Positions 33,330-61,202 are shown, counted from the first letter of the stretch. The stretch is 64,000 nt of DNA from Elusimicrobiota bacterium (GCA_041658185.1 JBBAAR010000008.1:3723-67722); one strand, 5' to 3'. The notes: a model not told the origin generated them from the letters alone. Made by a program: numbers and translations.

Positions 33330-33345
33330 TGTTTCACGTGAAACA
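33330..33345. promoter_or_regulatory. 16-bp perfect palindrome TGTTTCACGTGAAACA (copy 1)
   Basis: Exact palindrome with a CACGTG core. ~80 bp upstream of the 167-aa gene start and just downstream of the rimO stop. Confidence 0.7.
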
Positions 33346-33346
33346 T

Positions 33347-34627: not shown

Positions 34628-34630
34628 TTT

Positions 34631-34683
34631 ATTGCAGAGCGAGTTCTAACGAGTGTCTCAAAGAAATTTGTTCCCGAGCGACC
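34631..34683 (+). repeat. Half copy (right arm) of the MITE-like repeat element, copy B
   Basis: TTGCAGAGCGAGTTCTAACGAGTGTCTCAAAGAAATTTGTTCCCGAGCGAC matches the right half of 9833-9945 at ~90%. Confidence 0.65.
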
Positions 34684-34685
34684 TT

Positions 34686-36512
34686 TCATTGTTTCACGTG
34701 AAACATTTTAAGAGCCGGCTTCGCTTCGCCGGTTTTATCAAAAAGGGCAAAGTCCGTCCACATTTTCTCCGTGTACCATTCCGGGCTCCAGTAGAAAATA
34801 CCCGCTATGTTTTTGTTTCTTGCGCATCCGTCAATAAAATCCGAAATCCACCGTTTTTGTCCGTCAACGGTCAACGGATAACCGACGACCGGCTTGTTCC
34901 ACGCGGCGAATTGTCCTTCAATTTTTCCGGAAGAAGGGTAAGCAAACTCGCAAATAATTACCGGTTTTTTAATCTCCGAAACCAGCAATTCCACAAATTT
35001 TTCCAAGTCCTTAAATGTGTTATGCGGGCTTAAGCCGGAAGAGGGAAAATAGGATAAACCGAGTTCATCAATCTGCACTCCCGCCGTTCTCATTGTTTTA
35101 TAAAAATTTCCACAGAATTCCGGATTCCACCATTGGGTAAGATGCAGTATAAATTTCGCCTGCGGGTTAACCTTTTTTATTCCTTCCTGCGCTGCTTTGA
35201 TGAGTTCCGCCTCGTTGTTCCAGATATTTTTTTTCATCCAGTTGATATTAAAACGCACGCCCCAATCCTCGGCGAACTCTCCGCATATACCGAAGTCAAT
35301 TTCATTTCCTATTTCATATGTGTCAATTTTTATACCTGCCTGTTCAAAAGCCGTTGCGGTATTTTCAGAGTATTTTTTTACTTCTTTGATTTTTTCGCCG
35401 AAAGATAAATTTTTCCATTTTTCCGGGACAGGTTGCTTTACATAATCAGCCCAAGTATCGCTTAAAAAAACAACAAGGTAGGGCTTTAAGCCAGCCCGCA
35501 CGGCCTCTTTTGCAATTTTAATGGAATAATCCAGTCCACTATGCCCGTTTTTATTTGTCCATAACCTTATTCTGAACCAATTAAACCCGTTTTCAGAGAG
35601 AATTTGAAATATATTTTTTGTTTTTCCGTTAATTTTCCAATTTATGCCCTGCTCCGACATATCTAACGAATAATTCGCATCTGCGCCGATTTTGAACTCC
35701 CGTTCCGAATCACCCCAGATAGCGGAAGCCCATTCCGGATGGTCAATAAACGGGTTGCGGTTTCCCTGAATTTGAAATATCGCTTCATTTCTGTCGTTTT
35801 CCTTTTGACTGACAGGGTCGCTTAAATGCCATTTTAGAAGCGTTTTTATTGCCCAGTCGTTAAAATTCCCGCCGTTTTCCGTTACCATCTCGCTTTTTGA
35901 ACAATTAAGCGGGTCCTCGCCCGTCATATATCTTACGACAAAGTAAAAATATCCTCTCGCAAAATCGCCCTTAAATTCATCCGACGGCTCAAATACGTCG
36001 CCCTCAAAACCAAGTCCTTCCCGCGATTTTCCTACTTTTGAAATGCCATACTGCTGATAACTTTTTCCGACCTCGCCCAATGGTTTAACCCCTTTTTGTC
36101 CGTTTGTATGGGCGTCCGCCAAAATAACATTAAAGAGGTCGGAATGCGCGGGCGTATCTTTCCCGCCGCCCCACCAATCTTTAGGCCAGGAATGTTCGCG
36201 GGTTAAAAAACCACCGACCTCGCCGGTTTTTCCGGATTGAACGGACTCAAAAGAGTCAAAGTTATATCCCGAATACATACACCACGGTTTGCCTTCCGGC
36301 GTTGCGTCGGTTTTTTCAAAATATTTCCAAAGTTCCGAGTAATCCGGGACGGAATGGTCTTTTATTATATTATGCAACGATACCCTTAATTCATTCTCGA
36401 TTTTTCCTTTTGCGGAGTCATAGTATCCTTCCGGCTCTTCTGAAAACAGAGAACAACAGGAAAAAACTAAAATGGCCGCAATAATTATATTCTTTCTTTT
36501 TTTCCGTAGCAT
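34686..36512 (-). CDS. Secreted fusion protein: Endonuclease I (EndA/Vvn family) N-terminal domain + glycoside hydrolase family 53 (endo-1,4-beta-galactanase-like) C-terminal domain
   Basis: N-terminus: signal peptide, then 'GFLTREHSWPKDWWGG...HSDLFNVILADAHTNGQKG' (Endonuclease_1 NREH/DLHHL-like motifs). C-terminus: 'FNWFRIRLW', 'VVFLSDTWADYVKQP', 'YEIGNEIDF' (GH53 HYSDTWAD and catalytic-Glu GNE motifs). 608 aa. Confidence 0.7.
   Translation of the reverse strand: MLRKKRKNIIIAAILVFSCCSLFSEEPEGYYDSAKGKIENELRVSLHNIIKDHSVPDYSELWKYFEKTDATPEGKPWCMYSGYNFDSFESVQSGKTGEVGGFLTREHSWPKDWWGGGKDTPAHSDLFNVILADAHTNGQKGVKPLGEVGKSYQQYGISKVGKSREGLGFEGDVFEPSDEFKGDFARGYFYFVVRYMTGEDPLNCSKSEMVTENGGNFNDWAIKTLLKWHLSDPVSQKENDRNEAIFQIQGNRNPFIDHPEWASAIWGDSEREFKIGADANYSLDMSEQGINWKINGKTKNIFQILSENGFNWFRIRLWTNKNGHSGLDYSIKIAKEAVRAGLKPYLVVFLSDTWADYVKQPVPEKWKNLSFGEKIKEVKKYSENTATAFEQAGIKIDTYEIGNEIDFGICGEFAEDWGVRFNINWMKKNIWNNEAELIKAAQEGIKKVNPQAKFILHLTQWWNPEFCGNFYKTMRTAGVQIDELGLSYFPSSGLSPHNTFKDLEKFVELLVSEIKKPVIICEFAYPSSGKIEGQFAAWNKPVVGYPLTVDGQKRWISDFIDGCARNKNIAGIFYWSPEWYTEKMWTDFALFDKTGEAKPALKMFHVKQ
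34690..34705. promoter_or_regulatory. 16-bp palindrome TGTTTCACGTGAAACA (copy 2)
   Basis: Overlaps the last codons (MFHVKQ*) of the nuclease-GH53 gene and lies ~65 bp upstream of the rimO start. Confidence 0.7.
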
Positions 36513-36526
36513 ATTATTATATTAAC

Positions 36527-36768
36527 CTTATTATTTCTCGCTGAGCGAGCAAGAAATTTGTAATCATATCGCCGAGCGAGGGAGTTGGTGAGTCGGGTTT
36601 CTCACAGGTCGGCTTACTCTTTCAGCCGACCGGGAGAGAGCACTGCATCAAGCAGAGACAGCGTTCCGACGAGACAATTCCCGTGCGACCGAAGCCGACA
36701 GGGCGGTCGGATGAGCGACCAAAGGGAGTCCCTTTAGGGGTGTTTCCGACAAATTTACTTGCGAGCGA
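36527..36768 (+). repeat. MITE-like repeat element, copy C, with the central segment replaced or expanded by a ~185-bp GC-rich structured insert
   Basis: Left arm TTTCTCGCTGAGCGAGCAAGAAATTTG and right arm AAATTTACTTGCGAGCGA match the termini of copies A and D. The interior (36561-36745) is ~60% GC, versus ~36% for the genome. Confidence 0.6.
36561..36745. ncRNA. Candidate structured ncRNA (unknown class) inside repeat copy C
   Basis: Multiple stems: GTCGGCT-N9-AGCCGAC, CGGGA...TCCCG enclosing CTGC-AUCAA-GCAG, CCGAC-AGGGCG-GTCGG, AAAGGGAGTCCCTTT. Sits in the 5' leader region of the nuclease-GH53 gene (minus strand). Confidence 0.35.
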
Positions 36769-36769
36769 T

Positions 36770-36785
36770 TGTTTCACGTGAAACA
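36770..36785. promoter_or_regulatory. 16-bp palindrome (copy 3, extended to the 20-bp ATTGTTTCACGTGAAACAAT)
   Basis: Perfect 20-bp palindrome at the 3' end of the DUF2723 gene and ~260 bp upstream of the nuclease-GH53 start. Confidence 0.7.
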
Positions 36786-36786
36786 A

Positions 36787-38529
36787 TTATCTTTCATACT
36801 CCGATTTCCGGAGAAACTCCATCTCCGCTTCTTTTTTCAAACCCGCCTGCGAAAGAATAACTCCGGCATTGACGGATGCGTCTGTATAATACGAAATCAC
36901 AGTTTTTTCATAGTAATCAAGTTGGTTTTTAGGTTTTCTAAAAGGATAGAGTTCAAAAAGGAAACTGCCGCTGCTGACCTTTTCCGCTTTTTGAATTGCA
37001 GTCGCATTTTTAATCACCCTGCAGCCCAGGCCCCGCGGGATAACATAATTTTCAAGCCCCGGATGCACGCCTTCGGTAAAAACGGGCTCTTTGTCCGATT
37101 TTTTAAGAAGCGCATCAACAGTAGAAACAGAATTTTCATTGTAAAAAATTTCGGGGTATTTCTGCTCGTATTCGGCAATCCGCCAGGGCATAAATGAACT
37201 CAGAATTACTTTTACATCCCGCCGCATTTTTTCAACATTTTGAAAATAATTAACGGTAAAAATAGGTATGTCGGCGGTCATTAAAAGATAGGAATTTTCA
37301 GGAATTGAACGGAGCAGGTTTTTACCGTAATCGTGGGCAAGAAAATTGTTCCGCTTGTCTAAATGTTGAAAATTTTGGTAAAACAGAAATCCCGGCAAAA
37401 TGAGAAAAAGCGGGGATAAAATACGGGAAAAAAGTACCTGTCCCTTTATTATATCCATAAGTCCGCCAATCCCCATACCTATTATTAAGGCAATAAAAAC
37501 AGAGGACAAAACGCAAGCCGGTTCAAGTATCACAAGTGAAAATTCATTGTTCGGCAGTCGGGAGAGTAATATAAAAAACGGTCCGGTGAACAGGAAAAAA
37601 AAGAGCATTGTTTTTCCGAACCCGCCTTGAAGGTCTCTAAAACAGAAAAAAACACCGCTCGCCGTCAAAATAATGCCGAGCCGTCCGAATTGGTTCCTAA
37701 ACAATTGCCAAAACATTTTTGCAGAATCTTTAAGCGTATTTCCGTGCGCCGCGCCGGAATGCCTGCTTGAAAGTTTGACCGTGCCGTAGTCGGTCCTCAT
37801 CAAAACATTCGCAAAACTGCTTATTGTCTGCGGATTGCCCCAGTTGTTTAACGGCTGTTGCTTCGCCCTTATAGGAAGGAAAATATAAACGGAAAAGCCG
37901 AGAAGAAAAAACAGCGAGAGGGAGAGCAATTTTACCTTTTTACGCTTTAATAAATAATAAATTATTCCTGGGAGTAAAAGCACAAGCGTATGGTGGTTTC
38001 CGAGACCCAAACCGAATAAGAAAGCGGCGAGGAGCGTGTAGTTGCCGGGCTTGTTCGGCTTAGTAGCAAGTAACAAATAAACTATCAAAATGGCGAAAAG
38101 GGCGTTCATTGAGTATATTTCCGCCAAAATGGATTGCCGCCAAAAAGCAGTGGAAAACGCCAGCGTTAACGCAGATATAAAGGCAGTGAAGGAAAGCGAA
38201 AAAAAGTGAAAAAAAGTGTTTGACGAACTGCTTTCATTCAATCTCGCCCACTTCCGTTCACTTCTTTTCACTATTAAATAGACCATCATAACGGTTAATG
38301 AAGATGTAAAAGCGGAAAAAATGTTCAAACGGTAGCCGATGTTTCCGAAAGGAATTAGAATCGTCCATATTTTGCCGAGAATCACATAAACGGGATACCC
38401 CGGCGGATGTGCTATTCCCAGAGTAAAAGCAGAAGCGGTTAAATCACCTGCGTCCCTGAAAGGCGAAACGGAGGGGTAAAGAGTATAAAGATATGTTGAA
38501 AAACTGATTAAAAACAGAAAAATAGCCAT
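36787..38529 (-). CDS. DUF2723-family (TMEM260-like) GT-C-fold membrane glycosyltransferase-like protein
   Basis: 580 aa. N-terminal 'YPSVSPFRDAGDLTASAFTLGIAHPPGYPVYVILGKIWTILIPFGNIGYRLN' is ~70% identical to the same segment of 61204..63084. Multi-TM. C-terminal soluble region. Confidence 0.65.
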   Translation of the reverse strand: MAIFLFLISFSTYLYTLYPSVSPFRDAGDLTASAFTLGIAHPPGYPVYVILGKIWTILIPFGNIGYRLNIFSAFTSSLTVMMVYLIVKRSERKWARLNESSSSNTFFHFFSLSFTAFISALTLAFSTAFWRQSILAEIYSMNALFAILIVYLLLATKPNKPGNYTLLAAFLFGLGLGNHHTLVLLLPGIIYYLLKRKKVKLLSLSLFFLLGFSVYIFLPIRAKQQPLNNWGNPQTISSFANVLMRTDYGTVKLSSRHSGAAHGNTLKDSAKMFWQLFRNQFGRLGIILTASGVFFCFRDLQGGFGKTMLFFFLFTGPFFILLSRLPNNEFSLVILEPACVLSSVFIALIIGMGIGGLMDIIKGQVLFSRILSPLFLILPGFLFYQNFQHLDKRNNFLAHDYGKNLLRSIPENSYLLMTADIPIFTVNYFQNVEKMRRDVKVILSSFMPWRIAEYEQKYPEIFYNENSVSTVDALLKKSDKEPVFTEGVHPGLENYVIPRGLGCRVIKNATAIQKAEKVSSGSFLFELYPFRKPKNQLDYYEKTVISYYTDASVNAGVILSQAGLKKEAEMEFLRKSEYER

Positions 38530-38545
38530 TGTTTCACGTGAAACA
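38530..38545. promoter_or_regulatory. 16-bp palindrome TGTTTCACGTGAAACA (copy 4)
   Basis: Abuts the start codon of the DUF2723 gene (minus strand), in the divergent intergenic region with the TPR gene. Confidence 0.7.
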
Positions 38546-38907
38546 TTAAATGATTTGGTATAATTGGAGACCGTTGAAAAACCTTGTTTTTGTAGGCACG
38601 GTCTATGACCGTGCTAATATGCCATAGACGGAGTACGAACAAAGTTCGTGTCTACAATAAATATACCAAACACTTTTTCACCGGTATTATTATACAAAAA
38701 ATTTAGTTTAATTCAAGTCCTGTTGGATTAAGATTCTCTATCTAATTGGGGCAAGCCCGCCAAAAACAAAAAATCGTTCTGCATTTTTTTTGTTGTATTT
38801 TTTCAAAAATTTTGTATAATTTTTTTAGATGGAAAAAGACTTTTTCGTTAGAAAAACCGGAAAAACAGGGGAAACCAGAACCGTCCCCGTATTGCGTTGA
38901 GAAATAT

Positions 38908-41118
38908 ATGAAAAAACGTTTAGAGAATACCGTCCCGAATCACCTCTGGAAACAATGGATTGCAATTGGGATAATAGTTTTGGCAACAACAGTTGTCTAT
39001 TATAACTCACTAAAAGCACCGTTTATATTTGATGATATTGGAAAAATTGTTGAAAATCCCGATATAAACGATTTAAGAAATCTCAAAACAAAACTCATTT
39101 ACCCTTATAGTAAGAATAAAATATGGGAGCGAAACGATCCATCCCGCCCAGTTACATATTTGACTTTTACACTAAATTATTATTTTGGGAAATTAAATAC
39201 TTTCGGTTATCATCTATTTAATCTGCTCATACATATATTTAATGCGATTCTGCTGTTCTTTTTGACAAAAAAAATGATATTGTATCTCTGTAAGAAAGAT
39301 TCTGTTGTTTTCTCTTTTTTTGTGGCATTGTTTTTTGCCGTTCATCCAATCAACACAGCCGCAGTAACGTATATTTTTAGTCGTTCCGATGTTTTAGCTA
39401 CTTTTTTTTATATTTCATCTTTAATGTTATTTATAAAAACACGAGAAGTGACTTCGGACTTTGGACATCGGACACTTTTATACATTTTATCATTAGTGTG
39501 TTTTATATTAGCCCTTTTCTCAAAGCAAATAGCAGTAACTTTGCCTGCGATAGTGCTGGCTTTTGATTATATTTTCCTGAACGATTTCAGTGCAAAAAAA
39601 ACTCTTGAAAAAAAATATTATCACATACCGTTCTGGATTCTACTGATTGCGTATTTATTATTCCGATATTTTTATTTTGGCGGGCTGGGAGATGTAGAAG
39701 CAGAGACAAAAGATACTTGGAATAGATATTCCTATTTAATTATTCAGCCATACATAATTTTAAAGTATTTAAAACTGTTGCTTATTCCTATCGGACTTTG
39801 CATAGACCATCTAATCAGCCCTGTAAAAACATTGGAATTAAAAACAATAATATCTTTTTTGTCTCTTGCGGTAATATTCCGGTTAACTTACAGGACTTAT
39901 AAAAAGAAAACAGATATTTCAAAGATAATTCTATTTTGTGTGTTGTGGTTTTTTATAATTTTATCTCCGACATCCAGTTTTTTTCCTACCACCAGTGCAT
40001 TAGTTGAGAACCGGCTGTATATTTCAGGTATTGGATTTTATTTTTTTATTACTTTTTTGTATTTTAAAATATTTAAGATAGATTTTGCACTTGCGCAGGA
40101 GTTGAATTTAACCCGGAATTGGATTTTATTTAGTGTTATAATGCTTCATATTTCCCTGCTTGGTTATGGGACAATAAAACGAAATCAACTTTATCAAAAT
40201 CCTATATTACTATGGCAGGATGTTATTTCAAAATATCCTAATAATCCAAGAGCATATACCAATCTCGGACTTTTATTGGAAAAGTTAAACAGATTTACAG
40301 AAGCGGAGAAAGAATACAGGGAGGCGATAAGGATAAATCCGAATGCTGAAAAAGCGCACAACAATCTCGGCGGTTTATTGTGTAATTCAAAAAGATTTAA
40401 AGAAGCAGAGAGAGAATTCAGAGAGGCAATAAGAATAAATCCAAATAATGCAGGAGTGCACTACAATTTCGGACTTTTATTGTATACTTCAAAGAGATTT
40501 AAAGAGGCAGAGAGAGAATTCAGGGCGGCAATAAGAATAAATCCAAATTATTTAGAGGCGCACAACAATCTCGGCGGTTTATTGTATAATTCAAAAAGAT
40601 TTGAAGAAGCAGAGAGAGAATTCAGGGCGGCAATAAGAATAAATCCAAATTATTCAGAGGCGCACTACAATTTCGGACTTTTATTGTATACTTCAAAGAG
40701 ATTTAAAGAGGCAGAGAGAGAATTCAGGGCGGCAATAAGAATAAATCCAAATTATTTAGAGGCGCACAACAATCTCGGCGGTTTATTGTATAATTCAAAA
40801 AGATTTAAAGAAGCAGAGAGAGAATTCAGGGCGGCAATAAGAATAAATCCAAATTATTCAGAGGCGCACAACAATCTCGGAATTTTATTGGTAAGGTTAA
40901 ACAAATTGGAAGAAGCAGAAAAAGAATTCAGGGAAGCGATAAGGATAATGCCGAATAATACAGAAGCACACTACAATTTAGGCAATTTGTATTATGAACT
41001 GAAAGAATATAACAAGGCACTTCGAAAATTTGAAACTGCTTTAAGATTGTCACCAGACAATCAATTTATTCAAGATAAAATCAAGTTGTTACGTCAATTA
41101 ACGATGGAGAGGAAGTAA
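38908..41118 (+). CDS. TMTC/DUF1736-like membrane GT-C protein with a C-terminal TPR array
   Basis: 'PFIFDDIGKIVENPDI' is the FxxDD motif of the PMT/TMTC-like family. ~11 TM. C-terminal ~10 TPR units. Start taken at the internal ATG (38908); the ORF track begins at 38746. Confidence 0.7.
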   Translation: MKKRLENTVPNHLWKQWIAIGIIVLATTVVYYNSLKAPFIFDDIGKIVENPDINDLRNLKTKLIYPYSKNKIWERNDPSRPVTYLTFTLNYYFGKLNTFGYHLFNLLIHIFNAILLFFLTKKMILYLCKKDSVVFSFFVALFFAVHPINTAAVTYIFSRSDVLATFFYISSLMLFIKTREVTSDFGHRTLLYILSLVCFILALFSKQIAVTLPAIVLAFDYIFLNDFSAKKTLEKKYYHIPFWILLIAYLLFRYFYFGGLGDVEAETKDTWNRYSYLIIQPYIILKYLKLLLIPIGLCIDHLISPVKTLELKTIISFLSLAVIFRLTYRTYKKKTDISKIILFCVLWFFIILSPTSSFFPTTSALVENRLYISGIGFYFFITFLYFKIFKIDFALAQELNLTRNWILFSVIMLHISLLGYGTIKRNQLYQNPILLWQDVISKYPNNPRAYTNLGLLLEKLNRFTEAEKEYREAIRINPNAEKAHNNLGGLLCNSKRFKEAEREFREAIRINPNNAGVHYNFGLLLYTSKRFKEAEREFRAAIRINPNYLEAHNNLGGLLYNSKRFEEAEREFRAAIRINPNYSEAHYNFGLLLYTSKRFKEAEREFRAAIRINPNYLEAHNNLGGLLYNSKRFKEAEREFRAAIRINPNYSEAHNNLGILLVRLNKLEEAEKEFREAIRIMPNNTEAHYNLGNLYYELKEYNKALRKFETALRLSPDNQFIQDKIKLLRQLTMERK
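40260..40960 (+). repeat. Near-identical tandem 102-bp (34-codon) TPR-encoding DNA repeats
   Basis: ~7 units alternating two subtypes ('YLEAHNNLGGLLYNSKRFKEAEREFRAAIRINPN' and 'YSEAHYNFGLLLYTSKRFKEAEREFRAAIRINPN') with >90% nucleotide identity. Confidence 0.85.
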
Positions 41119-50913: not shown

Positions 50914-52293
50914 GTGAAAATAAATTCTGATGATACGATTGTCGCCATATCCACACTTTCTGGTTTTGCCGGCATAGGGATTGTCCGTCTCAGCGGTCCC
51001 GCGGCATTAAGCATCGCTTCCAAAATCTTCCATCCGAAAACGAAAAAAAAAATTTCAGAACTTTCCGCCAACACTGTCCATCTCGGGAAAATAAGTGACG
51101 GTAAAAAATTTGTTGATGAAGTGCTTTTGACGGTTATGAAAGCTCCGAAATCATATACCCGCGAGGATATAACAGAAATTTCCTGCCACGGTGGCCCCGT
51201 CCCGCTAAAAAAAACTCTTGAATTGTGCGTCAAATACGGTGCGCGTCTTGCCGACCCCGGCGAATTTACAAAGCGCGCTTATCTCAACGGGCGGATAGAT
51301 TTATCTCAGGCCGAGGCGGTCTGCGATATTATAAAGGCAAAAACGGAAGCAGCTCTCTCCTGTGCGGTTAGTCAATTGAGCGGGGTTTTATCGGAAGAAA
51401 TAAACAGGCAAAAAAGCGAACTTGTGGACATATTGGCTACAATAGAAGCGGCGATTGACTATTCGGAAGACGAGATACCGGTTATAGACGGTGAAGAAGT
51501 TCTCGGAAAGGTTGAAAAGGTAGGAACTGCGTTGGAGAAAATCCTTCTGACATTTCAGACCGGCAAAATTTACAGAGACGGAGTAAGAACCGCTATTATA
51601 GGCAAGCCGAATGTCGGAAAATCGTCGCTTTTGAATGTTTTAGTCGGGCAAAATAGAGCGATTGTAACGGAAATTCCAGGCACGACAAGGGACATCATAG
51701 AGGAGACGATTGACATTTCAGGTATTCCTTTGATTTTGACGGACACCGCCGGCATAAGAAAACACAGCAAAGATATAGTTGAAAAAATAGGAATTGAGAG
51801 GGCGCAGGAGACACTGCAAACTGCCGATTTGGTCCTGTTCGTATTGGACTCATCTTCAGAATTAAGTCATGAAGATTTTCACATTGCCGAACTGCTTGTT
51901 TCAAAAAAAGTTATTCTGGTTTTGAATAAATCCGATAAGCCCTCTAAAATCGGCAATGTTTCTGAGTTGGAAATTCCTGCTCCGGTTGTTACAATATCCG
52001 CTTCAAAAAATGAGGGTTTAGAAGAACTGAAAAAGATTATTTATAATTTGTTTATAACAAGCGATATAAACACCAGCGATTTTTTACTTACAAACACAAG
52101 GCATAAGATATTAGTTGAGAATGCTTTGAACTCGCTTGAAAAAGCGGCGTCGTCGGTTAAAGACGGCTTATCGGAAGAGTTCACGGCAACGGATTTGCGG
52201 AGTGCTCTGAATTATTTGGGCGAAATTACGGGCGAGGTTCCGACGGAAGAAATACTTGACAGGATTTTTTCAAATTTCTGCGTCGGAAAATAG
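50914..52293 (+). CDS. mnmE: tRNA modification GTPase MnmE (TrmE)
   Basis: G1 'GKPNVGKSS', G3 'DTAG', G4 'NKSD', C-terminal 'CVGK'. 459 aa. Confidence 0.95.
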   Translation: MKINSDDTIVAISTLSGFAGIGIVRLSGPAALSIASKIFHPKTKKKISELSANTVHLGKISDGKKFVDEVLLTVMKAPKSYTREDITEISCHGGPVPLKKTLELCVKYGARLADPGEFTKRAYLNGRIDLSQAEAVCDIIKAKTEAALSCAVSQLSGVLSEEINRQKSELVDILATIEAAIDYSEDEIPVIDGEEVLGKVEKVGTALEKILLTFQTGKIYRDGVRTAIIGKPNVGKSSLLNVLVGQNRAIVTEIPGTTRDIIEETIDISGIPLILTDTAGIRKHSKDIVEKIGIERAQETLQTADLVLFVLDSSSELSHEDFHIAELLVSKKVILVLNKSDKPSKIGNVSELEIPAPVVTISASKNEGLEELKKIIYNLFITSDINTSDFLLTNTRHKILVENALNSLEKAASSVKDGLSEEFTATDLRSALNYLGEITGEVPTEEILDRIFSNFCVGK

Positions 52294-52753: not shown

Positions 52754-53590
52754 ATGCAAAAAATTTTCAAGGCACGGTTCCTGATTTTACTTTTAACTTT
52801 TTGCTCTTGTTCTTTCCATCGTCCGAAACAAAAAGTTTGCAAAATAATTTATGAACAGGATTTCCCCATATCATTAGAATCTGTCGCAGTTTTTCCGGTT
52901 AGAATAGGATTCCCCACCGCATCTGCAACCGAATTCATCCCGCTTGTCAAATCACCGCTTATTATAGAAAATAAATCAGAGGATTGGCTCGGCCGCCGAG
53001 AGGAAAAAATGATAGTTGACTTTGAGACAGCCGAAAAAATAAGCAATATCACATCCGAGCATTTTTATACCATTTTGATAAAAAAGAAAAAGTATCGCCG
53101 CCTCGTCCATCCTGACACCGTAAGAAATGTAATGCTGAATAAAAAAACCTGGGGTATCGGTAATTTTAAGAGAGTAGATGATTTAAACAATCCCGAAACC
53201 CTTAAAAAATTATATGAAATTTCCGACGAATTAAAAGTTGACAGTTTGCTTATCAGCGTTATAAAAAAATGCGAAACGATTATTATTAATAAAAATGTAA
53301 AATCAACCGGTAGACGGGACTTCGGCGAGTATCAGAAAAGTATGAGTTATTCTTATAAATTTGAACTTGAATCAGGACTTTTCGCCGCCTCCGAGAAAAA
53401 AATCGTTTGGATTGGCGAAAGCAGAGAAACAAAATCAAACCGCACGCCGGAGTTAGAGCAGAATATACTTGTCGCATTCGCCACAAACGGACTTGAAAAA
53501 TTTTTTAGAAAATATCTGACGGAAAAAATTTTAAGGGAGGAACCGGAATATCAATGCGTGTTAAAAATAATAAATACCTTGCCATTTTGA
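52754..53590 (+). CDS. Hypothetical lipoprotein
   Basis: 'LLLTFCSCS' lipobox-like signal. 278 aa. No motif. Confidence 0.45.
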   Translation: MQKIFKARFLILLLTFCSCSFHRPKQKVCKIIYEQDFPISLESVAVFPVRIGFPTASATEFIPLVKSPLIIENKSEDWLGRREEKMIVDFETAEKISNITSEHFYTILIKKKKYRRLVHPDTVRNVMLNKKTWGIGNFKRVDDLNNPETLKKLYEISDELKVDSLLISVIKKCETIIINKNVKSTGRRDFGEYQKSMSYSYKFELESGLFAASEKKIVWIGESRETKSNRTPELEQNILVAFATNGLEKFFRKYLTEKILREEPEYQCVLKIINTLPF

Positions 53591-54249
53591 AATCTGTGTT
53601 AATCTGTGTCAATCTGTGGTTTCATATTTTGACTTTTTGTTTTTTGTTGAGTGATTTTGTATATTCCGAGTCATTATCCGGAAAAATTATTATTGTTGAC
53701 CCGGGGCACGCCGCAAAAAATTTTAACGGAAAAATTGTAAATTACGGATGTAAAAGTGCTTCCGGCGTGAAAGAAACAGATATCGTTGTTGATATTTCCG
53801 AAATTTTAGACGGGATTTTTTTGCAGGAAGGTGCGACGGTATATTTTACCCGTGACAGAAAAAATTACTGGCGGTTAGCAGAAAGTCAGGACGCCGATAA
53901 CCAAGCTCGCGCCGAGTTCGCCAACTCAAAAAATGCCGACCTGTTTTTACGTGTCCATTGCAACTGGTCGCCGAATAAAAAAAAGCGCGGCGTTTCGGTT
54001 CTGTGGTATAAAGACGACTCAAAAAAATTCGCAGAAACGGTGTATGAAGAAATAAAAAAATCCGGAGTTATCGTTGACGGCATTCATAAGCAATACCTTG
54101 TCGGTTTTGAGTTCGCAAAAGTCCCGTCAATTTTAATAGAATACGGCTATCTCTCAAACAAATCAGACGAAAAACTTTTGAAAGATAAAAAATATCTGCA
54201 AAAAGTTTCAGAGACGATTATAAATGGACTAAAAAAGTACTATAAGTGA
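53554..54249 (+). CDS. N-acetylmuramoyl-L-alanine amidase (Amidase_3 family)
   Basis: 'KIIIVDPGHAAKN', '...LFLRVHCN', '...EYGYLSN' Amidase_3 zinc-ligand motifs. Confidence 0.8.
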   Translation: MRVKNNKYLAILKSVLICVNLWFHILTFCFLLSDFVYSESLSGKIIIVDPGHAAKNFNGKIVNYGCKSASGVKETDIVVDISEILDGIFLQEGATVYFTRDRKNYWRLAESQDADNQARAEFANSKNADLFLRVHCNWSPNKKKRGVSVLWYKDDSKKFAETVYEEIKKSGVIVDGIHKQYLVGFEFAKVPSILIEYGYLSNKSDEKLLKDKKYLQKVSETIINGLKKYYK

Positions 54250-54260: not shown

Positions 54261-55298
54261 ATGAAAAAGTTCAGATTAAGTTTTTTAATTGTTTTAAGTA
54301 TTAATGTAATCCAAATTTTAAGATTATTTGCCGACGACACATACGTAGAAATTGCCGGGGGCGCCGCTAAAATTATGGATGAACACAACAGTATATCTAT
54401 GGTTTCAGAATATGTAATAATGGATATTACGAAAAGTGAATATTACACAGTTGATGCGAGTTTTGAATTTTATAATAATGGAGTTGATACTGAAACAGTG
54501 GTTGGTTTTCCACAAGTGGAATGGGTTATGAATAATGATGATTTAAAAGACGAGGAGTTTTCTAATTTTGTGTCATTCAAGACATTTATAAACGAATCCG
54601 AAGCAAAAACTGTAGTAATACCGAATTCTGAAAAAAAGACAGATGTAAAAAAATGGATAATAAAAACAGTAAAATTCCCTTCCCAAAAAGTGACAAAAAC
54701 AAGAGTAATTTATAAAGCACCTTATGGGGATGTTTCAGGTAGAACTATTTTGGCTCTTTATTTGTATGGAACCGGTGGCTCTTGGTATGGTAGTATTGGT
54801 AAAGTAATATTTGATTTAAGGTTTTCAAATGACACATGGATACAAATAGAAAATTCTAATTATTTATATCCCTTTATGTCACTATGGTGGAAAAAACGAT
54901 CAGGACAAGAGATTCCAATGGTTATTTTCAAACGTAGGAAAAATGAAATGATTTGGGAATTAAAAGATATTGAACCCCAACCGAATGATTATTTTAAAAT
55001 TTCCTTAGGAGGACATGGAAGGCATATACCTTGGGGTTACTCATTTGATTGGGATAAAAATAAACTTGATGAACCTTGTCTTGAGTTGCTGTCAATGTGG
55101 CAATTGAAAATTTTCAGGAATGAGTTTTATGCAAGACACGGAAGAATTTTCAAAGATAAAAAATTACAAGAATATTTTGAGTCACAGGATTGGTACAAGC
55201 CAAACCCAAATTTCTCTGAGAAAATGTTAAATAAAACTGAATTAGAAAATATCAAAAAAATCAAAGATTATGAAACAAAAATAGAGAAAGAAAAATAA
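54261..55298 (+). CDS. Secreted YARHG-domain protein
   Basis: Signal peptide. C-terminal 'LKIFRNEFYARHGRIFKDKKLQEYF' is the YARHG motif. Confidence 0.75.
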   Translation: MKKFRLSFLIVLSINVIQILRLFADDTYVEIAGGAAKIMDEHNSISMVSEYVIMDITKSEYYTVDASFEFYNNGVDTETVVGFPQVEWVMNNDDLKDEEFSNFVSFKTFINESEAKTVVIPNSEKKTDVKKWIIKTVKFPSQKVTKTRVIYKAPYGDVSGRTILALYLYGTGGSWYGSIGKVIFDLRFSNDTWIQIENSNYLYPFMSLWWKKRSGQEIPMVIFKRRKNEMIWELKDIEPQPNDYFKISLGGHGRHIPWGYSFDWDKNKLDEPCLELLSMWQLKIFRNEFYARHGRIFKDKKLQEYFESQDWYKPNPNFSEKMLNKTELENIKKIKDYETKIEKEK

Positions 55299-55302: not shown

Positions 55303-55336
55303 ATGTTCACATATCCGGAAAAATTTGATGTGATTG
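55303..55336 (+). repeat. Degenerate duplicate of the mnmG 5' end (copy 1; attL-like scar) heading cassette 1
   Basis: ATGTTCACATATCCGGAAAAATTTGATGTGATTG is 32/34 identical to the true mnmG start at 59150. Encodes [11 protein letters not shown] then diverges to a stop. Confidence 0.85.
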
Positions 55337-55438
55337 GAGCAAAACAATTTTTTCCGGATAAAATCACTTGACAAATTAACTATTATTGTATAACATATTA
55401 CTTGTCAGGTAATTTACATTACACAAAGAGTTGAAAAA

Positions 55439-56251
55439 ATGAAAACACTCGGGAAAATCAGCGCCAATCTTATAGCCGAACTTTATGATGAAAACAAGCC
55501 GGTTTTTATGATTGACGATATCGTCCGTATAAATAAAACATCCCGCCCGAATGCGGCGAAGTTGGTTTTTGATTTAATTAAAAGAAAAGTAATCCATCGG
55601 CTTAAAAAGGGCAAGTACATTATTATTCCGCAGGAACTCGGTTCGGCGGATACATTTACCGGTAATTTGTATGTAATGGCAAAGGAAATTGTAAATACAC
55701 AGAATTACTATATTGCTTTTTATAGTGCTATGAAATACTGGGGAATGACGACCCAGCCGGTTATTAAAATGTTTATTGTCACATCAAAAAGACAGTTCCC
55801 GCCGAAAGCAATCGCAGACAAAGTTTCGTTTGTATTTGTGAACAAAAAAAATATATGGGGTATAAAAAGCGAATGGATAACAAAAACGGCGAGAGTGAAT
55901 ATTTCCGATATTGAAAAAACGATAGTTGACGCGCTTTCCCATCCCGAATACTGCGGCGGGATTACGGAGGTCGCCAAGGGTATCTGGTTGGTTAAAGATA
56001 AAATAAATTTTAAACGGCTCGTTAAATATACGACGAAATATAACAAAAAAGTGGTCGCCAAAAGATTGGGTTATATTCTTGAAATACTCGGCATAGATGC
56101 CGGCGATACATTTACAAAACTGAAAACTTATGTTTCAAACAGATATGATTTATTAGATCCGACATCCATAAAAAAAAGTATTGATAAAAATAATTGGCGT
56201 TTGATTGATAATATCGGAAGCAACCAGATATTAAAAATTATATCTGCATAA
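55439..56251 (+). CDS. abiEi: AbiEi-like antitoxin/transcriptional regulator (type IV TA)
   Basis: 270 aa. N-terminal wHTH with 'RLKKGKYIIIP'. 4-nt gap to the AbiEii gene. Confidence 0.65.
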   Translation: MKTLGKISANLIAELYDENKPVFMIDDIVRINKTSRPNAAKLVFDLIKRKVIHRLKKGKYIIIPQELGSADTFTGNLYVMAKEIVNTQNYYIAFYSAMKYWGMTTQPVIKMFIVTSKRQFPPKAIADKVSFVFVNKKNIWGIKSEWITKTARVNISDIEKTIVDALSHPEYCGGITEVAKGIWLVKDKINFKRLVKYTTKYNKKVVAKRLGYILEILGIDAGDTFTKLKTYVSNRYDLLDPTSIKKSIDKNNWRLIDNIGSNQILKIISA

Positions 56252-56255
56252 AATT

Positions 56256-57056
56256 ATGATTGAATACAATTATGTAAGAAAATTGAGTGAAAAAATCGGT
56301 ATTCCGGAAGAAACCATTGAAAAGGACTTTTGTATAGAATTATTGCTCAGCCGATTTTGTAACAGTGCCATCTTGACAAAAAATTTTGTATTTCGCGGAG
56401 GGACAGCATTAAAAAAAATGTATTTTCCGGAGTTCCGTTATTCGGAGGATTTGGATTTTATATTAAAATCCGACGATAATTTAAGTATTTATGAAAAAAT
56501 CATTGAAGATATTTTAAGTGAAGCGGTAAAGCATTTGCCGATAGTTCTTAAGATAAAAAATATTTTTTATTCTCAGCGGGGGCATCTGCAAATATTTATT
56601 CTGTATGATATTATTCCGGAAATTCGTTCCGCTAAAGAACTGAAGATAGACATAATTGAGGACAGTATTGTATTGCCCTCAAAAAATAGAAAAATCAATT
56701 TTTCATTTGAATATTTTAAAAAGTCAAATTGCTTTCTGAATACATATAATTTGGAATCAATAATTGCAGAAAAAATCGGTAGAATTTTGGATGTGGTAGA
56801 TGAGCCGCGTGATTTGTGGGATTTACTGTATCTGCTGAAATCAAAAATAAAAATTAGAGATGCCAAAAAATCATTCAGGAAAAAATACGGGACAGAAATA
56901 AATGCACCAAGTTTGCGTAATGCCGTAAAAAATAAAAATTACAAAAAAATGTGGGATATAAGATTGAAAAACCAACTGCCGAATCTCACCGAGTATGAAA
57001 CAGTTGTGAAAGAACTTGAAATTTTAATAAAATCTTATTTTCAAGCGAGCGAGTGA
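56256..57056 (+). CDS. abiEii: AbiEii/AbiGii-family nucleotidyltransferase toxin (DUF1814)
   Basis: 'FRGGTALKKMYFPEFRYSEDLDF' is the family-defining GGTAL...RYSEDLD motif. Confidence 0.85.
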   Translation: MIEYNYVRKLSEKIGIPEETIEKDFCIELLLSRFCNSAILTKNFVFRGGTALKKMYFPEFRYSEDLDFILKSDDNLSIYEKIIEDILSEAVKHLPIVLKIKNIFYSQRGHLQIFILYDIIPEIRSAKELKIDIIEDSIVLPSKNRKINFSFEYFKKSNCFLNTYNLESIIAEKIGRILDVVDEPRDLWDLLYLLKSKIKIRDAKKSFRKKYGTEINAPSLRNAVKNKNYKKMWDIRLKNQLPNLTEYETVVKELEILIKSYFQASE

Positions 57057-57141
57057 AAAACAAACTTGTTTGTTTTTCCGAGTGAGCGCCGAAAGCAAAG
57101 GGTTTAATACCCGTTATTTCGGCGATGTATAAAAAATAATT

Positions 57142-57169
57142 CCCAATTAGTCCAATTGGACTAATTGGG
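57142..57169. repeat. 28-bp perfect palindrome CCCAATTAGTCCAATTGGACTAATTGGG
   Basis: Exact reverse-complement symmetry. A 24/26-matching relative (CAATTAGACCAATTGGACTAATTGGA) lies at 6505-6530, overlapping the start of the Ni-locus OMP-like gene. Confidence 0.85.
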
Positions 57170-57183
57170 AAAAATAGATTATT

Positions 57184-57223
57184 ATGTTCACATATCCGGA
57201 AAAATTTGATGTGATTGCGGTTG
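57184..57223 (+). repeat. Degenerate duplicate of the mnmG 5' end (copy 2) heading cassette 2
   Basis: 36/40 identical to the mnmG start. Encodes [15 protein letters not shown]... then a stop after 24 codons. Confidence 0.85.
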
Positions 57224-57326
57224 ATGGAAGTTCTTTCAATGATAGACGAAAAACTTGAGCAGAAAAAAAAGCAAAAAAATATTTTAACAAACAAGATTTC
57301 CTAGCCGGGAAAAAGAGGGTAAAAAT

Positions 57327-58430
57327 ATGAGCAAGATAATGAGTGTTGAAGGGTTATACGGTAAGATAAGAGAAATTTTAGAAAGCGCCCGCAGTAATTC
57401 TTATCGTGCGGTAAACTTCGCAATGGTTCTGGCATATTGGAATATAGGAAGGATTATCGTTGAAGAAGAACAAAAAGGTAAAAACAAAGCGGATTATGGC
57501 ACATATCTTATAAAAGAACTTTCAAACAGGTTGCGAAAAGAATATGGCGAAGGGTTTAACGAAACGAATCTGAAATATTTTCGGCAATTTTATGTTGCCT
57601 TCCCAATAAGTCACGCGGTGCGTGACCAATCTCATATTGCTAAAAAAGGTCACGCAGTGGGTGACTTTTTCTCTGTTTTGCTGAATAAGAATCTATCTTC
57701 TAAGTTAACATGGACGCATTATCGGCTATTGCTTAAAGCGGGTAATTCATCAGCGAGAGAGTTTTATATAAACGAATGTATTGAAGGCAACTGGAGCACT
57801 CGTCAACTTGAACGGCAGATAAATTCCTTTTATTACGAACGGCTTTTGGCAAGCAAAAATAAAAAAGCGGTAGTAAAAGAAGCATTAAAAACCGCGGATA
57901 AGTTAAAGACCACTCCGAATGATGTTATCAAAGACCCATATGTTTTGGAATTTCTCGGTCTGAAAGAGAATAAAAAATACCTTGAGTTAAATATAGAAAA
58001 AGCGATTATTGACAAACTTCAGGAGTTTTTGCTTGAACTTGGAAAAGGTTTTTGTTTTGTTGCCCGCCAGCAGCGGATTTCTACAGAAAGCCAGCATTTT
58101 TACATAGACCTTGTGTTTTATAATTACATTCTGAAATGTTTTGTTTTGATTGATTTGAAAGTCGGGAAACTTACTCATCAGGATATAGGGCAGATGGATA
58201 TGTATGTTCGCTTGTATGAAGACAAAATAAAACCGGAAGGACATAATCCAACAATAGGGATAATTCTTTGCGCCGAAAAAGACGAGACGGTAGTCAAATA
58301 TTCCGTATTAAAGGAAAACAAACGATTATTCGCTTCAAAGTATAAATTATATCTTCCCACTGAGGCAGAATTGAAAAAAGAACTTGAAAAAGAAAGGAAT
58401 CTTATTGAAACAGAGCAAAAATTAAAATAG
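57327..58430 (+). CDS. DUF1016/YhcG-like PD-(D/E)xK nuclease-fold protein
   Basis: C-terminal 'IDLVFYNYILKCFVLIDLKVGKL' is a PD-(D/E)xK core. N-terminal YhcG-like domain. 367 aa. Confidence 0.7.
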   Translation: MSKIMSVEGLYGKIREILESARSNSYRAVNFAMVLAYWNIGRIIVEEEQKGKNKADYGTYLIKELSNRLRKEYGEGFNETNLKYFRQFYVAFPISHAVRDQSHIAKKGHAVGDFFSVLLNKNLSSKLTWTHYRLLLKAGNSSAREFYINECIEGNWSTRQLERQINSFYYERLLASKNKKAVVKEALKTADKLKTTPNDVIKDPYVLEFLGLKENKKYLELNIEKAIIDKLQEFLLELGKGFCFVARQQRISTESQHFYIDLVFYNYILKCFVLIDLKVGKLTHQDIGQMDMYVRLYEDKIKPEGHNPTIGIILCAEKDETVVKYSVLKENKRLFASKYKLYLPTEAELKKELEKERNLIETEQKLK

Positions 58431-58433
58431 GAT

Positions 58434-58472
58434 TCGTTCGGCACTTATCCGGAAAAATTTGATGTGATTGCG
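58434..58472 (+). repeat. Degenerate duplicate of the mnmG 5' end (copy 3, lacks ATG) heading cassette 3
   Basis: GTTCGGCACTTATCCGGAAAAATTTGATGTGATTGCGG matches the mnmG start with a 3-nt insertion and 2 mismatches. Confidence 0.8.
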
Positions 58473-58509
58473 GCAGAGAAGTGCACTGCCGTGGACTAAG
58501 GATATTTTT

Positions 58510-59142
58510 ATGAAAATAGAATACGTATCGTTTAAAAATCGGGCTGCCCGTTCCGGGTACATCCGCGACAGGTTTTCACACTTGTTAGCCGGAAAAATAC
58601 TTGATGTCGGGTGCGATATGGCGGTTTTAAAAAAATTATTGCCGGATGCCGAATACACCGGCGTAGACATTGCGGGCGCTCCCGATATTAAATTGGATTT
58701 GGAAAGCATTGACAAACTTCCATTTAACGACGGAACTTTTGATTGCGTGATTTGCTCAGACGTATTGGAACACCTTGATAATTTACATCATATTTTTGAT
58801 GAATTGGTCCGGGTTGCAAAAAATCATATTATTATTTCGCTGCCGAATAACTGGGTCAATGCAAGATTGCCGATAAGCAGGGGAAAAGGTTCGTTCGGGC
58901 ACTATGGGTTGCCTGCCGTTCCACCGCCCGACCGCCACAAATGGTTTTTCGGACTTTCCGAGGCGATAAATTTTATAAAGAAAAAATCTGAAACGTCGGC
59001 GGTTACCGTTGCTGAAATGTATATAAACGAAAAACCGAGACCGGTACTCTTGAGGTCTGCGCTGAAATTGATGAATGCTTCACGGGAACGTTATCTGAAC
59101 CGCTATGCGCATACCGTGTGGTTCGTCCTCAAAAAGAAATAG
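58510..59142 (+). CDS. Class I SAM-dependent methyltransferase (substrate unknown)
   Basis: '[11 protein letters not shown]' (motif I), '[12 protein letters not shown]' (post-I/II). ~210 aa. Confidence 0.7.
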
Positions 59143-59149
59143 GAAAATT

Positions 59150-60907
59150 ATGTTCACATATCCTGAAAAATTTGACGTGATTGTGGTAGGGGCGGGGCAT
59201 GCGGGTTGCGAGGCAGCTTTGAGTTCAGCGAGAATGGGGTTGAAAACTCTGCTTCTTACCATAAATGCGGATACCGTTGCCCAGATGTCCTGCAATACTG
59301 CAATCGGCGGCGTCGCGAAGGGACAAATCGTCAGAGAAATAGATGCCCTCGGCGGTGAAATGGCAAAAATCGCTGATAAAACCGGTTTGCAGTTCCGTAT
59401 ACTCAACAAATCAAAAGGACCAGCGGTGCAGTCACCGAGAGCACAATGCGACAAAAAACTTTATCAGTTCACAATGAAGCATACGATTGAAAAGCAAAAA
59501 AACCTGCGGTTCATTCAGGCGGAAGCGACAGAAATTTTAACCGACGGGAAAAAAGCAATCGGTATTATCACAAAACCGTCAATAAAATTTTTAGGCAGAA
59601 CCGTAATTATAACAACCGGCACATTTTTGAAAGGGCTTATCCATATCGGCGAGACAACTTTTCACTCCGGAAGAAGCGGCGAATTTGCGGCTATGCATCT
59701 TTCGGATTCACTGAAAAAACTCGGGTTTGAAATCGCACGTCTTAAAACCGGGACTCCGCCGAGAATTAACGGAAAAACGGTTGATTATTCAAAATGTATT
59801 GCACAACCCGGCGATGAACCTGCTATACCATTTTCATATTTTACAGAAAAAATAACGCAGAAACAACTTCCCTGCTGGCTCACTTATACGAATGAAAAAA
59901 CCCACAAAATTATATCGGCAAATTTTCACCGCGCGCCGCTTTTTTCAGGACAGATTAAAGGTATCGGGCCCAGATATTGTCCGTCCATTGAGGATAAAGT
60001 AAAAAAATTTCCCGAAAAGAACCGCCACCAGATTTTTCTTGAGCCGGAGGGATATGATACGGAAGAGGTCTATTGCAACGGAATTGCGACCTCGCTTCCA
60101 TATGATGTCCAATATGAAATGTTGAAAACTATAGACGGGCTGGAAAATTGTGAGATGATAAGACCCGGCTATGCGATTGAATATGATTTTTGCCAGCCGA
60201 CACAACTGAAGCCGACTCTTGAAACGAAAAATATTGAAGGTTTATTTTTTGCGGGACAGATTAACGGAACTTCCGGTTATGAGGAAGCGGCAGGTCAGGG
60301 AATAATTGCCGGAATAAATGCAGTTGCAAAAATAAAAGGTATTGAGCCGCTGATTCTTCGTCGGGATGAAGCGTACATCGGAGTTTTAATAGACGATTTG
60401 GTGACGAAAGGCGTCCTTGACCCTTACAGAATGTTCACTTCCCGTGCCGAGTATCGTCTTATTCTACGCGCCGACAATTCTGATTTGCGTTTGATGGATT
60501 ACGGTTATAAATACGGTTTGATTGACGGCGAAATTTACAAAAAGTTTCAGAAGTACAGGGAACTTGTTAAAGAAAATAATTTTGAGTTTGACGCAGATAT
60601 TTTACCGTGGACAAAAGAGAAGATTGAATATGAAATTGAAATTGAAAAAAAATATGCCGGCTACATAAAAAGACAGATTGCGGATGTTGAAAAATTCAAA
60701 AAAATTGAAAATAAAAAAATTCCGGAAAAAATTAACTATGACAAAATTCCGGGCTTATTGACGGAAAGCAGGCACAAGTTGAATCAGGTGCGTCCGGTTT
60801 CCGTCGGTCAGGCATCAAGAATTTCAGGGGTTACTCAAGCCGATTTAAGCATAATTATGATATGGCTGGAAAAGAAAAAGCGCATAAAGAGGGCAAATTA
60901 TGGATAA
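59150..60907 (+). CDS. mnmG: tRNA uridine 5-carboxymethylaminomethyl modification enzyme MnmG (GidA)
   Basis: '[24 protein letters not shown]' FAD-binding start. 'TGTPPRI'. C-terminal helical domain. Start taken at the internal Met; the ORF track starts 15 codons earlier. Confidence 0.95.
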
Positions 60908-61202
60908 TTTCATTAGTAATGATGTCCCGTTGGATGTCCTTGACACCGAACTCGTTTTGGAGGTCGCTTCAAAAAATATTTTAGGATTTGAAAAACGGTT
61001 TAAGTTTTTTAATACCCATTTTGAGTATAAGAATTTTTTCGGAAGAAAAAGAAAGGTATATTACAGTTTGTTAGAAAAAATTTATTATGCTAAAAACAAA
61101 ATAAAAATAAAACTTTACGGTAAAATGTTCGCCATATCGTTGTGCGGTGTAGAAAATTCCGTAGAAAACTACGACAAATTGAAAAAATTAACCGGATTTT
61201 GA
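60900..61202 (+). CDS. Hypothetical small protein
   Basis: 100 aa ORF overlapping the mnmG stop by 8 nt. No motif. Confidence 0.35.

Follow-up and report, generated by a model that had tools for sequence, protein, structure and literature searches.

Copies of the mnmG start and the genes between them

The subject of this analysis is a 64,000-nucleotide stretch of DNA (hereafter the window; GCA_041658185.1, JBBAAR010000008.1:3723-67722) from the replication-origin region of an Elusimicrobia metagenome-assembled genome, in which the first codons of mnmG are repeated ahead of the gene itself and enclose a series of small gene cassettes. A 25-nt core, TATCCGGAAAAATTTGATGTGATTG, occurs in three exact copies at positions 55312-55336, 57193-57217, and 58446-58470 and in a fourth copy at 59159-59183 that lies within the true mnmG start and has two mismatches; the plus strand carries all four, and chance matches to the core numbered zero in each of 100 dinucleotide shuffles. 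Flanks included, the copies make up a 46-nt family whose start-to-start distances are 1881, 1253, and 713 nt. Copies 1 (55303-55336) and 2 (57184-57217) run from an ATG, kept at 55303 and 57184, to GATTG; they share 36 identical nucleotides and read as dead open reading frames (ORFs) that stop after 22 and 24 codons, respectively. Copy 3 (58434-58470) has no ATG: TTCGGCACT stands at 58434-58445 where ATGTTCACA is expected, next to an intact core. Copy 4 (59150-59183) is the sole one that continues, from its ATG at 59150, into a full-length MnmG of 585 aa (59150-60907; Pfam GIDA, 4e-174, profile positions 1-390 of 391, plus the C-terminal bundle). This layout of four co-oriented mnmG starts, the three upstream ones dead and the third devoid of its ATG, confirms what the first-pass annotation of the window had reported. 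We refer to the upstream copies as scars. Scanning the window for other dispersed gene-start repeats revealed none, and Rfam gave no match over its whole length.

Three cassettes lie between successive copies, all of them on the plus strand. The first contains two genes separated by 4 nt, the products of which match AbiEi (55439-56251; Pfam PF09407, AbiEi_1; PADLOC, 1.2e-74) and AbiEii (56256-57056; Pfam PF08843, AbiEii; PADLOC, 2.6e-49), which identifies the cassette, by homology, as a type IV toxin-antitoxin/abortive-infection pair. It has its own conserved promoter, a promoter-like TTGACA-17-TAACAT/TATAAC site at 55368-55396 that is invariant in 7 lineages. The second carries a gene (57327-58430) for a DUF1016/YhcG PD-(D/E)xK nuclease (Pfam YhcG_C, 2.6e-58, and DUF1016_N, 2.5e-43), which PADLOC matches to the candidate defense gene PDC-S02 (9e-148). 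The third encodes a predicted class I S-adenosylmethionine (SAM)-dependent methyltransferase (58510-59142; Pfam Methyltransf_11/23/25) with no substrate assigned, the true start of which is, from its homologs, the ATG at 58510. The same three contents had been named at first pass, and the Pfam and PADLOC matches bear them out. GC content is 0.33 in the array versus 0.38 to 0.43 in the flanks. Upstream, on the plus strand as well, stand an N-acetylmuramoyl-L-alanine amidase gene (53554-54249; Pfam Amidase_3, 4.6e-36), which is the conserved left flank of the hotspot, and a YARHG-domain gene (54261-55298; Pfam YARHG), a variable "first gene" between the amidase gene and scar 1 that has no scar on its own left. 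Downstream of mnmG lie a 100-aa ORF and a TMEM260-like gene.

The borders of the repeat are sharp. Recent scars extend from the ATG (from up to 17 nt upstream of it in L005, one of the related loci described below) to +34 to +42, beyond which identity to mnmG is at background; past +38, the methyltransferase leader makes an exception, with 23 matches in 50 positions, a marginal excess after multiple testing. A repeat that begins approximately at the ATG and ends at approximately +34 to +38 in recent scars is what would be expected if an element had to rebuild the 5' end of the gene. At the right end of a cassette, the stop codon of the last gene is followed by 2 to 12 nt and then by ATGTTCAC, except in the AbiE cassette of the window, where this distance is about 130 nt because two extra segments are inserted. 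The left end begins after GATTG(YGG), 33 to 110 nt before the start codon. All cassettes are co-oriented with mnmG, and every right end carries ATG..GATTG except that of the DUF1016 cassette, which is never adjacent to mnmG. How tightly a cassette can be trimmed is illustrated by that of the methyltransferase, which adds to the ORF just 39 nt on its 5' side and 7 nt on its 3' side; in a comparison with a homolog that lacks scars and lies in an unrelated context (L097, 75% aa identity), the shared sequence runs from the methyltransferase ATG to the stop codon. Another homolog (79% aa identity) is found directly upstream of mnmG in L098/L099.

The scars next to DUF1016 are informative about where exchange takes place. 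The left border of this cassette, GATTGCGrTTGATGGAAGT, is common to the window and to locus L004 (at 4985), and its right scar is decayed and devoid of an ATG in both (GG[C/T]ACT-TATCCGGAAAAATTT). The 3' half of that right scar belongs to the methyltransferase leader in the window (58434-58480) and to the TPR657 leader in L004 (6194-6250; scar at 6209). The constant left half combined with a 3' half that matches the neighbor indicates that scars are chimeras of neighboring cassette ends, with the exchange inside the 25-nt core. Since the right end of DUF1016 lacks a start codon, this cassette can sit at internal scars only, and internal scars must therefore be used as well. Copy 3 is thus chimeric, its degenerate ATG-proximal half going with DUF1016 and its right half with the methyltransferase cassette; copy 2 joins the right end of AbiE to the left end of DUF1016, and the right border of copy 1 is the left end of the AbiE cassette, its left half stemming from the pre-insertion mnmG start. 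As a side observation, an internal segment of the methyltransferase gene (58888-58908, GGTTCGTTCGGGCACTATGG, encoding GSFGHYG) resembles the degenerate left part of copy 3 (58429-58449, GATTCGTTCGGCACTTATCC), a likeness that may be due to chance; the corresponding scar of L004 is less similar.

The non-coding scar to the left of AbiE is 90 to 94% conserved across 7 lineages, compared with 91 to 92% for the AbiE promoter and 63 to 71% for the next 38 alignment columns, a spacer, in the same lineages. Among the six closer lineages, 4 of its 5 polymorphic positions are third-codon positions of mnmG (p about 0.05). This pattern suggests that scars are copied from functional starts and do not drift freely. 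Older scars are decaying, namely those at 2885 and 6209 in L004 and at 3362 in L096 and the ATG-proximal part of copy 3 in the window.

Comparing the right end of AbiE in the window (57040-57183) with that in six other lineages identified two window-specific insertions, one of about 90 nt just past the AbiEii stop codon and the other a perfect 32-nt palindrome with a 14-bp stem (57140-57171), flanked by AAAAAATAATT and AAAAATAGATT. The palindrome does not occur at the AbiE right end of the relatives and probably lies outside the recombination site; it may be a tiny insertion resembling a miniature inverted-repeat transposable element (MITE), with target duplication.

A hairpin within the boundary repeats, which had been put forward at first pass, is not a general feature. 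Folding z-scores were -2.3, -0.9, and +1.0 for copies 1, 3, and 4 and ranged from -1.4 to +0.6 in the relatives, so that copy 1 of the window alone folds well. The pairing arm is a partial core copy, inverted, that belongs to the AbiE leader. Outside the window, where it is strong (z of -2.3), the hairpin is weak in L092 and otherwise absent; it is confined to the left end of the AbiE cassette and missing from most relatives, and we reject a general boundary hairpin. A separate inverted repeat, ATTAC-N7-GTAAT (55396-55425), follows shortly after the AbiE -10 box and does not vary among 7 lineages. AbiEi proteins are autoregulatory, and by analogy this repeat is a likely AbiEi operator, more so than the hairpin.

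Alleles of the amidase-mnmG interval

Genomes, metagenomes, and Logan assemblies yielded about 17 distinct related loci, some of which were assembled in duplicate. In the clade with an MnmG 85 to 97% identical to that of the window, the amidase-mnmG interval is hypervariable, and this interval is the hotspot. Comparing the alleles of relatives, a check proposed in the first-pass annotation, brought to light empty sites, alternative cassettes, arrays of other lengths, and pairs of alleles with and without AbiE. Read from the amidase to mnmG, with s for a scar, the window has YARHG, s, AbiE, s, DUF1016, s, methyltransferase, and L004 has p402, s, Wzy_C-TPR, s, DUF1016, s, TPR657, s, AbiE (TPR, tetratricopeptide repeat). 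Shorter arrays ending in AbiE are those of L005 (Wzy-TPR, s, AbiE), L092 (p426, s, AbiE), L096 (p546, a degenerate s, AbiE), L008/L085/L089 (TPR688, s, AbiE), and L095, where the last gene is as in L093 and is followed by s and AbiE. L090/L091 contain Wzy-TPR only, L094 contains p421 only, and L093/L086, together with the partial L084, contain p244-p209-p238 only; in L098/L099 the allele ends in the methyltransferase. The site is empty, with the amidase gene abutting mnmG, in L009-L012 and L100/L101, which are more distant relatives in which MnmG is 76 to 83% identical.

Occupied sites with 1 to 4 scars are thus found in L004, L005, L008/L085/L089, L092, L095, and L096, and the repeat is present in 4 copies in the window, in 5 in L004, and in 2 each in L005, L008, L092, L095, and L096. 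Five types of scar-bounded cassette can be distinguished (AbiE, DUF1016, methyltransferase, TPR657, and Wzy-TPR). AbiE occupies the same site in L004, L005, L008, L092, L095, and L096, and DUF1016 follows AbiE in the window but precedes it in L004. The most direct view of insertion comes from three pairs of alleles that differ by AbiE on the same upstream background, L092 versus L094 (p426/p421), L005 versus L090 (Wzy-TPR), and L095 versus L093/L086/L084, the AbiE-less members being L090, L093, and L094; the insertion point is identical in all three. The first gene after the amidase, YARHG in the window, is elsewhere p402, Wzy_C-TPR, p421/p426, p546, or p244-p209-p238.

Repeats of the gene's own start upstream of mnmG are restricted to this close Elusimicrobia clade in a scan of 80 mnmG loci from many phyla, and a search of metagenome contigs with the core pattern gave 6 loci, all linked to mnmG. 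The hotspot had been described as interrupting a conserved mnmE-mnmG adjacency, a claim that does not hold for this clade. In the window, mnmE (50914-52293) is separated from mnmG by a TauE gene, a gene for a 278-aa protein, the Amidase_3 gene, and the YARHG gene, followed by the array; the two genes are also apart in relatives with an empty site, where a variable transporter of the TauE or major facilitator superfamily type, the 278-aa protein, and the Amidase_3 gene intervene.

Origin of the array and relation to known systems

Repeats, cassette boundaries, scars that are chimeric and conserved, and alleles that are empty or differently filled have all been directly observed, and from them we conclude that the amidase-mnmG interval is a real and recurrent cassette hotspot, best explained by serial site-specific insertion of cassettes that bring their own mnmG start, a reading that we hold to be probable, if only just. 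The attachment site would be the first ~34 to 42 nt of the mnmG coding sequence. Circular intermediates, the type of recombinase, and any present activity are inferences: small circular cassettes with one copy of the site each would insert by Campbell-type site-specific recombination, with a crossover within TATCCGGAAAAATTTGATGTGATTG, most probably close to its 3' end. A new ATG and the first 11 codons would come from the right end of the incoming cassette, leaving mnmG intact and the old start behind as a scar, and internal scars with the 25-nt core would still be usable, allowing cassettes to be lost, gained, and reordered. Co-orientation with mnmG presumably keeps the gene transcribed by read-through. 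The recombinase would be encoded outside the cassettes and their neighborhood and act in trans, from the chromosome or a helper element, or would since have been lost. Under this scheme, the AbiE circle should contain the junction ...GGGAAAAATAGATTATTATGTTCACATATCCGGAAAAATTTGATGTGATTG followed by GAGCAAAACAATTTTTTCCGG, and the AbiE-less chromosome ...GAAAGAAAAATAATTTTATGTTCACATATCCGGAAAAATTTGATGTGATTG followed by CGGTTGATGGAAGTTC. What stands of the serial-integration reading given at first pass is repeated insertion at one site in the 5' end of mnmG and rebuilding of the gene at the downstream junction; its mnmE adjacency and its hairpin do not. Mobilization in trans after the manner of integrons or satellites, likewise suggested there, is a candidate mode only: neither a recombinase nor a circular form nor a near-identical cassette elsewhere was found.

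Several observations weigh against serial site-specific insertion. Comparison with Pfam of 40 window ORFs (comprising most ORFs of at least 110 aa) and inspection of the Pfam-annotated gene lists of L090, L092, L093, and L100 up to 10 kb from mnmG revealed no tyrosine or serine recombinase, in agreement with the earlier statement that no integrase lies in or near the array. No attP-bearing element was found either, the core having zero matches in viral contigs and only mnmG-linked ones in metagenome contigs, and the core shows neither the clear dyad symmetry nor the conserved hairpin of a classical recombinase site. A left scar is always missing from the gene that follows the amidase. For Wzy-TPR in L005 and L090, comparison with L004 explains this by an apparent deletion that also clipped the 3' end of the amidase gene: the amidase reads into the Wzy_C-TPR leader in L005 (6150-6210) and L090 (8020-8060), and at the corresponding place L004 retains the complete amidase end, followed by an additional gene and a scar. 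This deletion accounts for Wzy-TPR but not for YARHG or the other first genes. Finally, orthologous cassettes are about as diverged as mnmG itself. Nucleotide identity is 81 to 94% for AbiE and 81 to 92% for mnmG (r = 0.81), with one discordant pair, the window and L008 (93.8% for AbiE, 85.5% for mnmG); DUF1016 of the window and L004 is 86% identical in nucleotides and 93% in amino acids, with mnmG at 83 to 87%; and the methyltransferase is 79% identical in amino acids, with MnmG at 85%. No near-identical cassette was found outside the clade: the closest homologs are 75 to 79% identical for the methyltransferase and at most 69% for DUF1016, and the plasmid collection contained only distant DUF1016 homologs. 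Cassettes that have diverged like mnmG and have no near-identical copy outside the clade imply that movement is rare or ancient and turnover slow.

Other explanations were considered. The source being a metagenome-assembled genome, an assembler might have chained single-cassette strain variants through their common repeat. A different assembler produced the Logan k=31 contigs of SRR8449812, which possibly derive from the same reads as the window. These contigs end and start exactly at copies 1 and 2, where the repeat is longer than k, and at these two points the graph is ambiguous, fitting either a linear array or a cassette-less chromosome plus a circle; one contig (L001), however, runs from copy 2 through copies 3 and 4 into mnmG. 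This second assembler supports the layout. Nor are the copies a collapsed repeat, since 2 core positions and the flanking sequences distinguish them. As multi-scar arrays recur in independent assemblies from other studies (L004 from UBA4817, L005 from groundwater, L008 from CG06, L085/L089 from JGI, L092/L096 from Logan, and L095 from NCBI), we reject an artifact, which appears highly improbable. A biological alternative is that homologous recombination did all the work: after a single founding duplication of the mnmG start, RecA-dependent or slipped exchange between repeats of 25 to 58 nt, together with exchange between strains through the homologous amidase and mnmG flanks, would have deleted, circularized, reinserted, and shuffled cassettes with no dedicated recombinase. 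The absence of a recombinase near the arrays and the age of cassettes that codiverge with mnmG speak for such a process; loss between direct repeats and allele swapping through the flanks would produce the pairs with and without AbiE, and the discordant window-L008 pair fits exchange between strains. What it leaves unexplained is that at least five unrelated genes are each bounded by a copy of the mnmG start, with a 5' edge that coincides or nearly coincides with the ATG (the DUF1016 right scar being degenerate there) and, in recent scars, a 3' edge at +34 to +38. Moreover, repeats of 25 to 36 nt are poor substrates for RecA, and drift should have eroded the non-coding scars like the spacer, whereas they are 90 to 94% conserved. 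We consider this explanation unlikely.

Also unlikely, in our opinion, is a fossil array, in which the units are deletion remnants, akin to cis-mobilizable elements (CIMEs), of elements or prophages that once had mnmG-specific integrases; the units would now be immobile, and their diversity would result from loss and rearrangement. Such decay is the standard origin of integrase-less units flanked by att sites (PMC5704250), the divergence of the cassettes approximates that of the host genes, and the older scars (2885 and 6209 in L004, 3362 in L096, and copy 3 of the window) are visibly decaying. Decay would, however, have had to cut five cassette types down to one or two ORFs with tight borders while leaving no integrase pseudogene, remnant, or other element debris, none of which turned up in the roughly 12 occupied alleles; AbiE and DUF1016 do not keep the same order from one genome to another, and recent scars are intact and conserved. 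A bolder possibility, which we advance tentatively and regard as doubtful, is a working platform of a kind not yet described, similar to an integron, in which an unlinked recombinase captures, excises, and reorders ORF-sized cassettes at the 25-nt core. Such a platform would recombine at the 5' coding end of a housekeeping gene, rebuilt at each insertion, with no integrase beside the array and a recombinase that is chromosomal or borne by a helper.

Serial site-specific insertion at mnmG has precedents. Islands specific for dusA target the 5' coding end of that gene, supply a new 5' end, and leave imperfect direct repeats and a remnant of the old 5' end (PMC4482086). The mnmG units resemble these and the prfC islands (SXT/R391) in hitting the 5' end of a conserved housekeeping gene, dusA being, like mnmG, a tRNA modification gene, and in supplying the functional start, since full-length MnmG starts at copy 4 and the upstream copies stop. 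They differ in target (mnmG), in host (Elusimicrobia), in the stacking of several units, and above all in size, 0.7 to 1.9 kb with one or two ORFs and no integrase compared to 10 to more than 100 kb with an integrase of their own beside att. Integrase-less CIMEs of the ICESt1/ICESt3 family in Streptococcus thermophilus keep attL and attR and accrete in tandem at att sites (PMC5704250), and the tycheposon islands of Prochlorococcus are strewn with partial tRNA copies (bioRxiv 10.1101/2020.12.28.424599). In accretion arrays of this type, as is proposed for the mnmG array, each new integration into the shared site displaces older units inward, and partial target copies remain between them; target-derived direct repeats, a single-copy empty site, and hybrid junctions are all present at mnmG, and no recombinase was found in the scanned units and neighbors. 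CIME arrays differ, however, in that they sit at the 3' ends of genes or at tRNA/tmRNA genes, usually include an integrase element or fragments of one, and have larger units with loose borders. The ssrA islands of Dehalococcoides reportedly belong with tandem accretion at att sites as well.

Two other families of cassettes bear a partial resemblance. Integrons and clusters of attC sites lacking integron integrases (CALINs) share with the mnmG array compact, co-oriented, and mostly single-ORF cassettes, a short repeated site, variable order, and a cargo of toxin-antitoxin and defense genes, and CALIN arrays exist with no integrase next to them. At mnmG, in contrast, the repeat is the start of a coding gene and insertion rebuilds the host gene. 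No intI or attI was found beside the array, its neighbors being the amidase, YARHG, 100-aa ORF, and TMEM260-like genes; the repeats share no hairpin fold, and GTTRRRY is on neither strand of the core. We therefore reject attC sites, as neither motif nor fold fits. Integrative mobile elements exploiting Xer (IMEXs) and pdif modules are likewise small, recombinase-less modules bounded by short copies of a host site, occur in tandem arrays, and are moved in trans by a host-encoded recombinase. The mnmG core appears to differ from them in lacking a dif-like 11-6-11 architecture, because its ATAA-like and TATGTT-like parts are separated by anything from 1 to 7 nt, and the locus is about 20 kb from the predicted origin rather than at the terminus. 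TTATGTTCACA weakly resembles a XerD arm, with a gap of 1 to 7 nt to the upstream ATAA depending on the copy; neither motif nor spacing seems to fit, and dif-like sites are considered unlikely. The array thus works like the islands that target 5' ends and like accretion arrays, and what is unusual about it is the 0.7- to 1.9-kb size of the units, their tight borders, and the absence of an integrase.

Were the site-specific reading to be true, mnmG would be added to the few protein-coding genes known to be used as attachment sites at their 5' end, integrase-less units of one or two ORFs could be stacked and reordered at such a site, and a first handle would be available on the exchange of AbiE and DUF1016/PDC-S02 defense genes in Elusimicrobia. 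This phylum has very few cultured members and, to our knowledge, few characterized mobile elements. With its tight cassette borders and conserved non-coding scars, the array offers a concrete 25-nt substrate for tracing the missing recombinase. Should nothing more than relic elements and homologous recombination be at play, the locus is an ordinary, though tidy, integration hotspot.

Surroundings of the array

Immediately downstream of the array, the 100-aa ORF (60900-61202) overlaps the end of mnmG, stop codon included, by 8 nt. Considered as a candidate accessory factor, it matched nothing in Pfam or PADLOC. All array-bearing lineages with sequence past mnmG have this ORF, as does L010 (40% identity), and it is absent from the empty-site lineages L009, L011, L012, and L100. 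Two contigs from metagenome-assembled genomes, L006 (9999-11719) and L007 (448-2193), encode an MnmG about 90% identical to that of the window in a wholly different gene neighborhood, their nucleotide homology to the window beginning 2 to 20 nt upstream of the mnmG ATG; this context could reflect a rearrangement, a transfer of mnmG, or a chimera of binning or assembly.

The predicted replication origin lies in the window (19601-38700): the minimum of the cumulative GC skew is at ~36 to 38 kb, where gene orientation switches, and dnaA (26445-27803), dnaN, gyrB, gyrA, parB, and parA are all on the minus strand. The cassette array is ~17 to 21 kb to the right of the GC skew minimum. A low-GC islet (0.31 to 0.35) at 12062-16324, with a Fic-domain gene, a 340-aa ORF, an N6/N4 DNA methylase gene, and a gene for a restriction endonuclease of the MvaI/BcnI family, is probably a second acquired defense islet. 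A 29-nt motif, GTCTGAAAAGTAATACATTTGTAGTAATT, occurs with 76 to 100% identity at four intergenic places (30672, 30738, 48508, and 52318), upstream of parB, upstream of yidC, and downstream of mnmE, and has no Rfam match. Lastly, the gene of a 790-aa TPR protein (38746-41118) contains six tandem 102-nt repeats (40230-41039) that are 70 to 86% identical.

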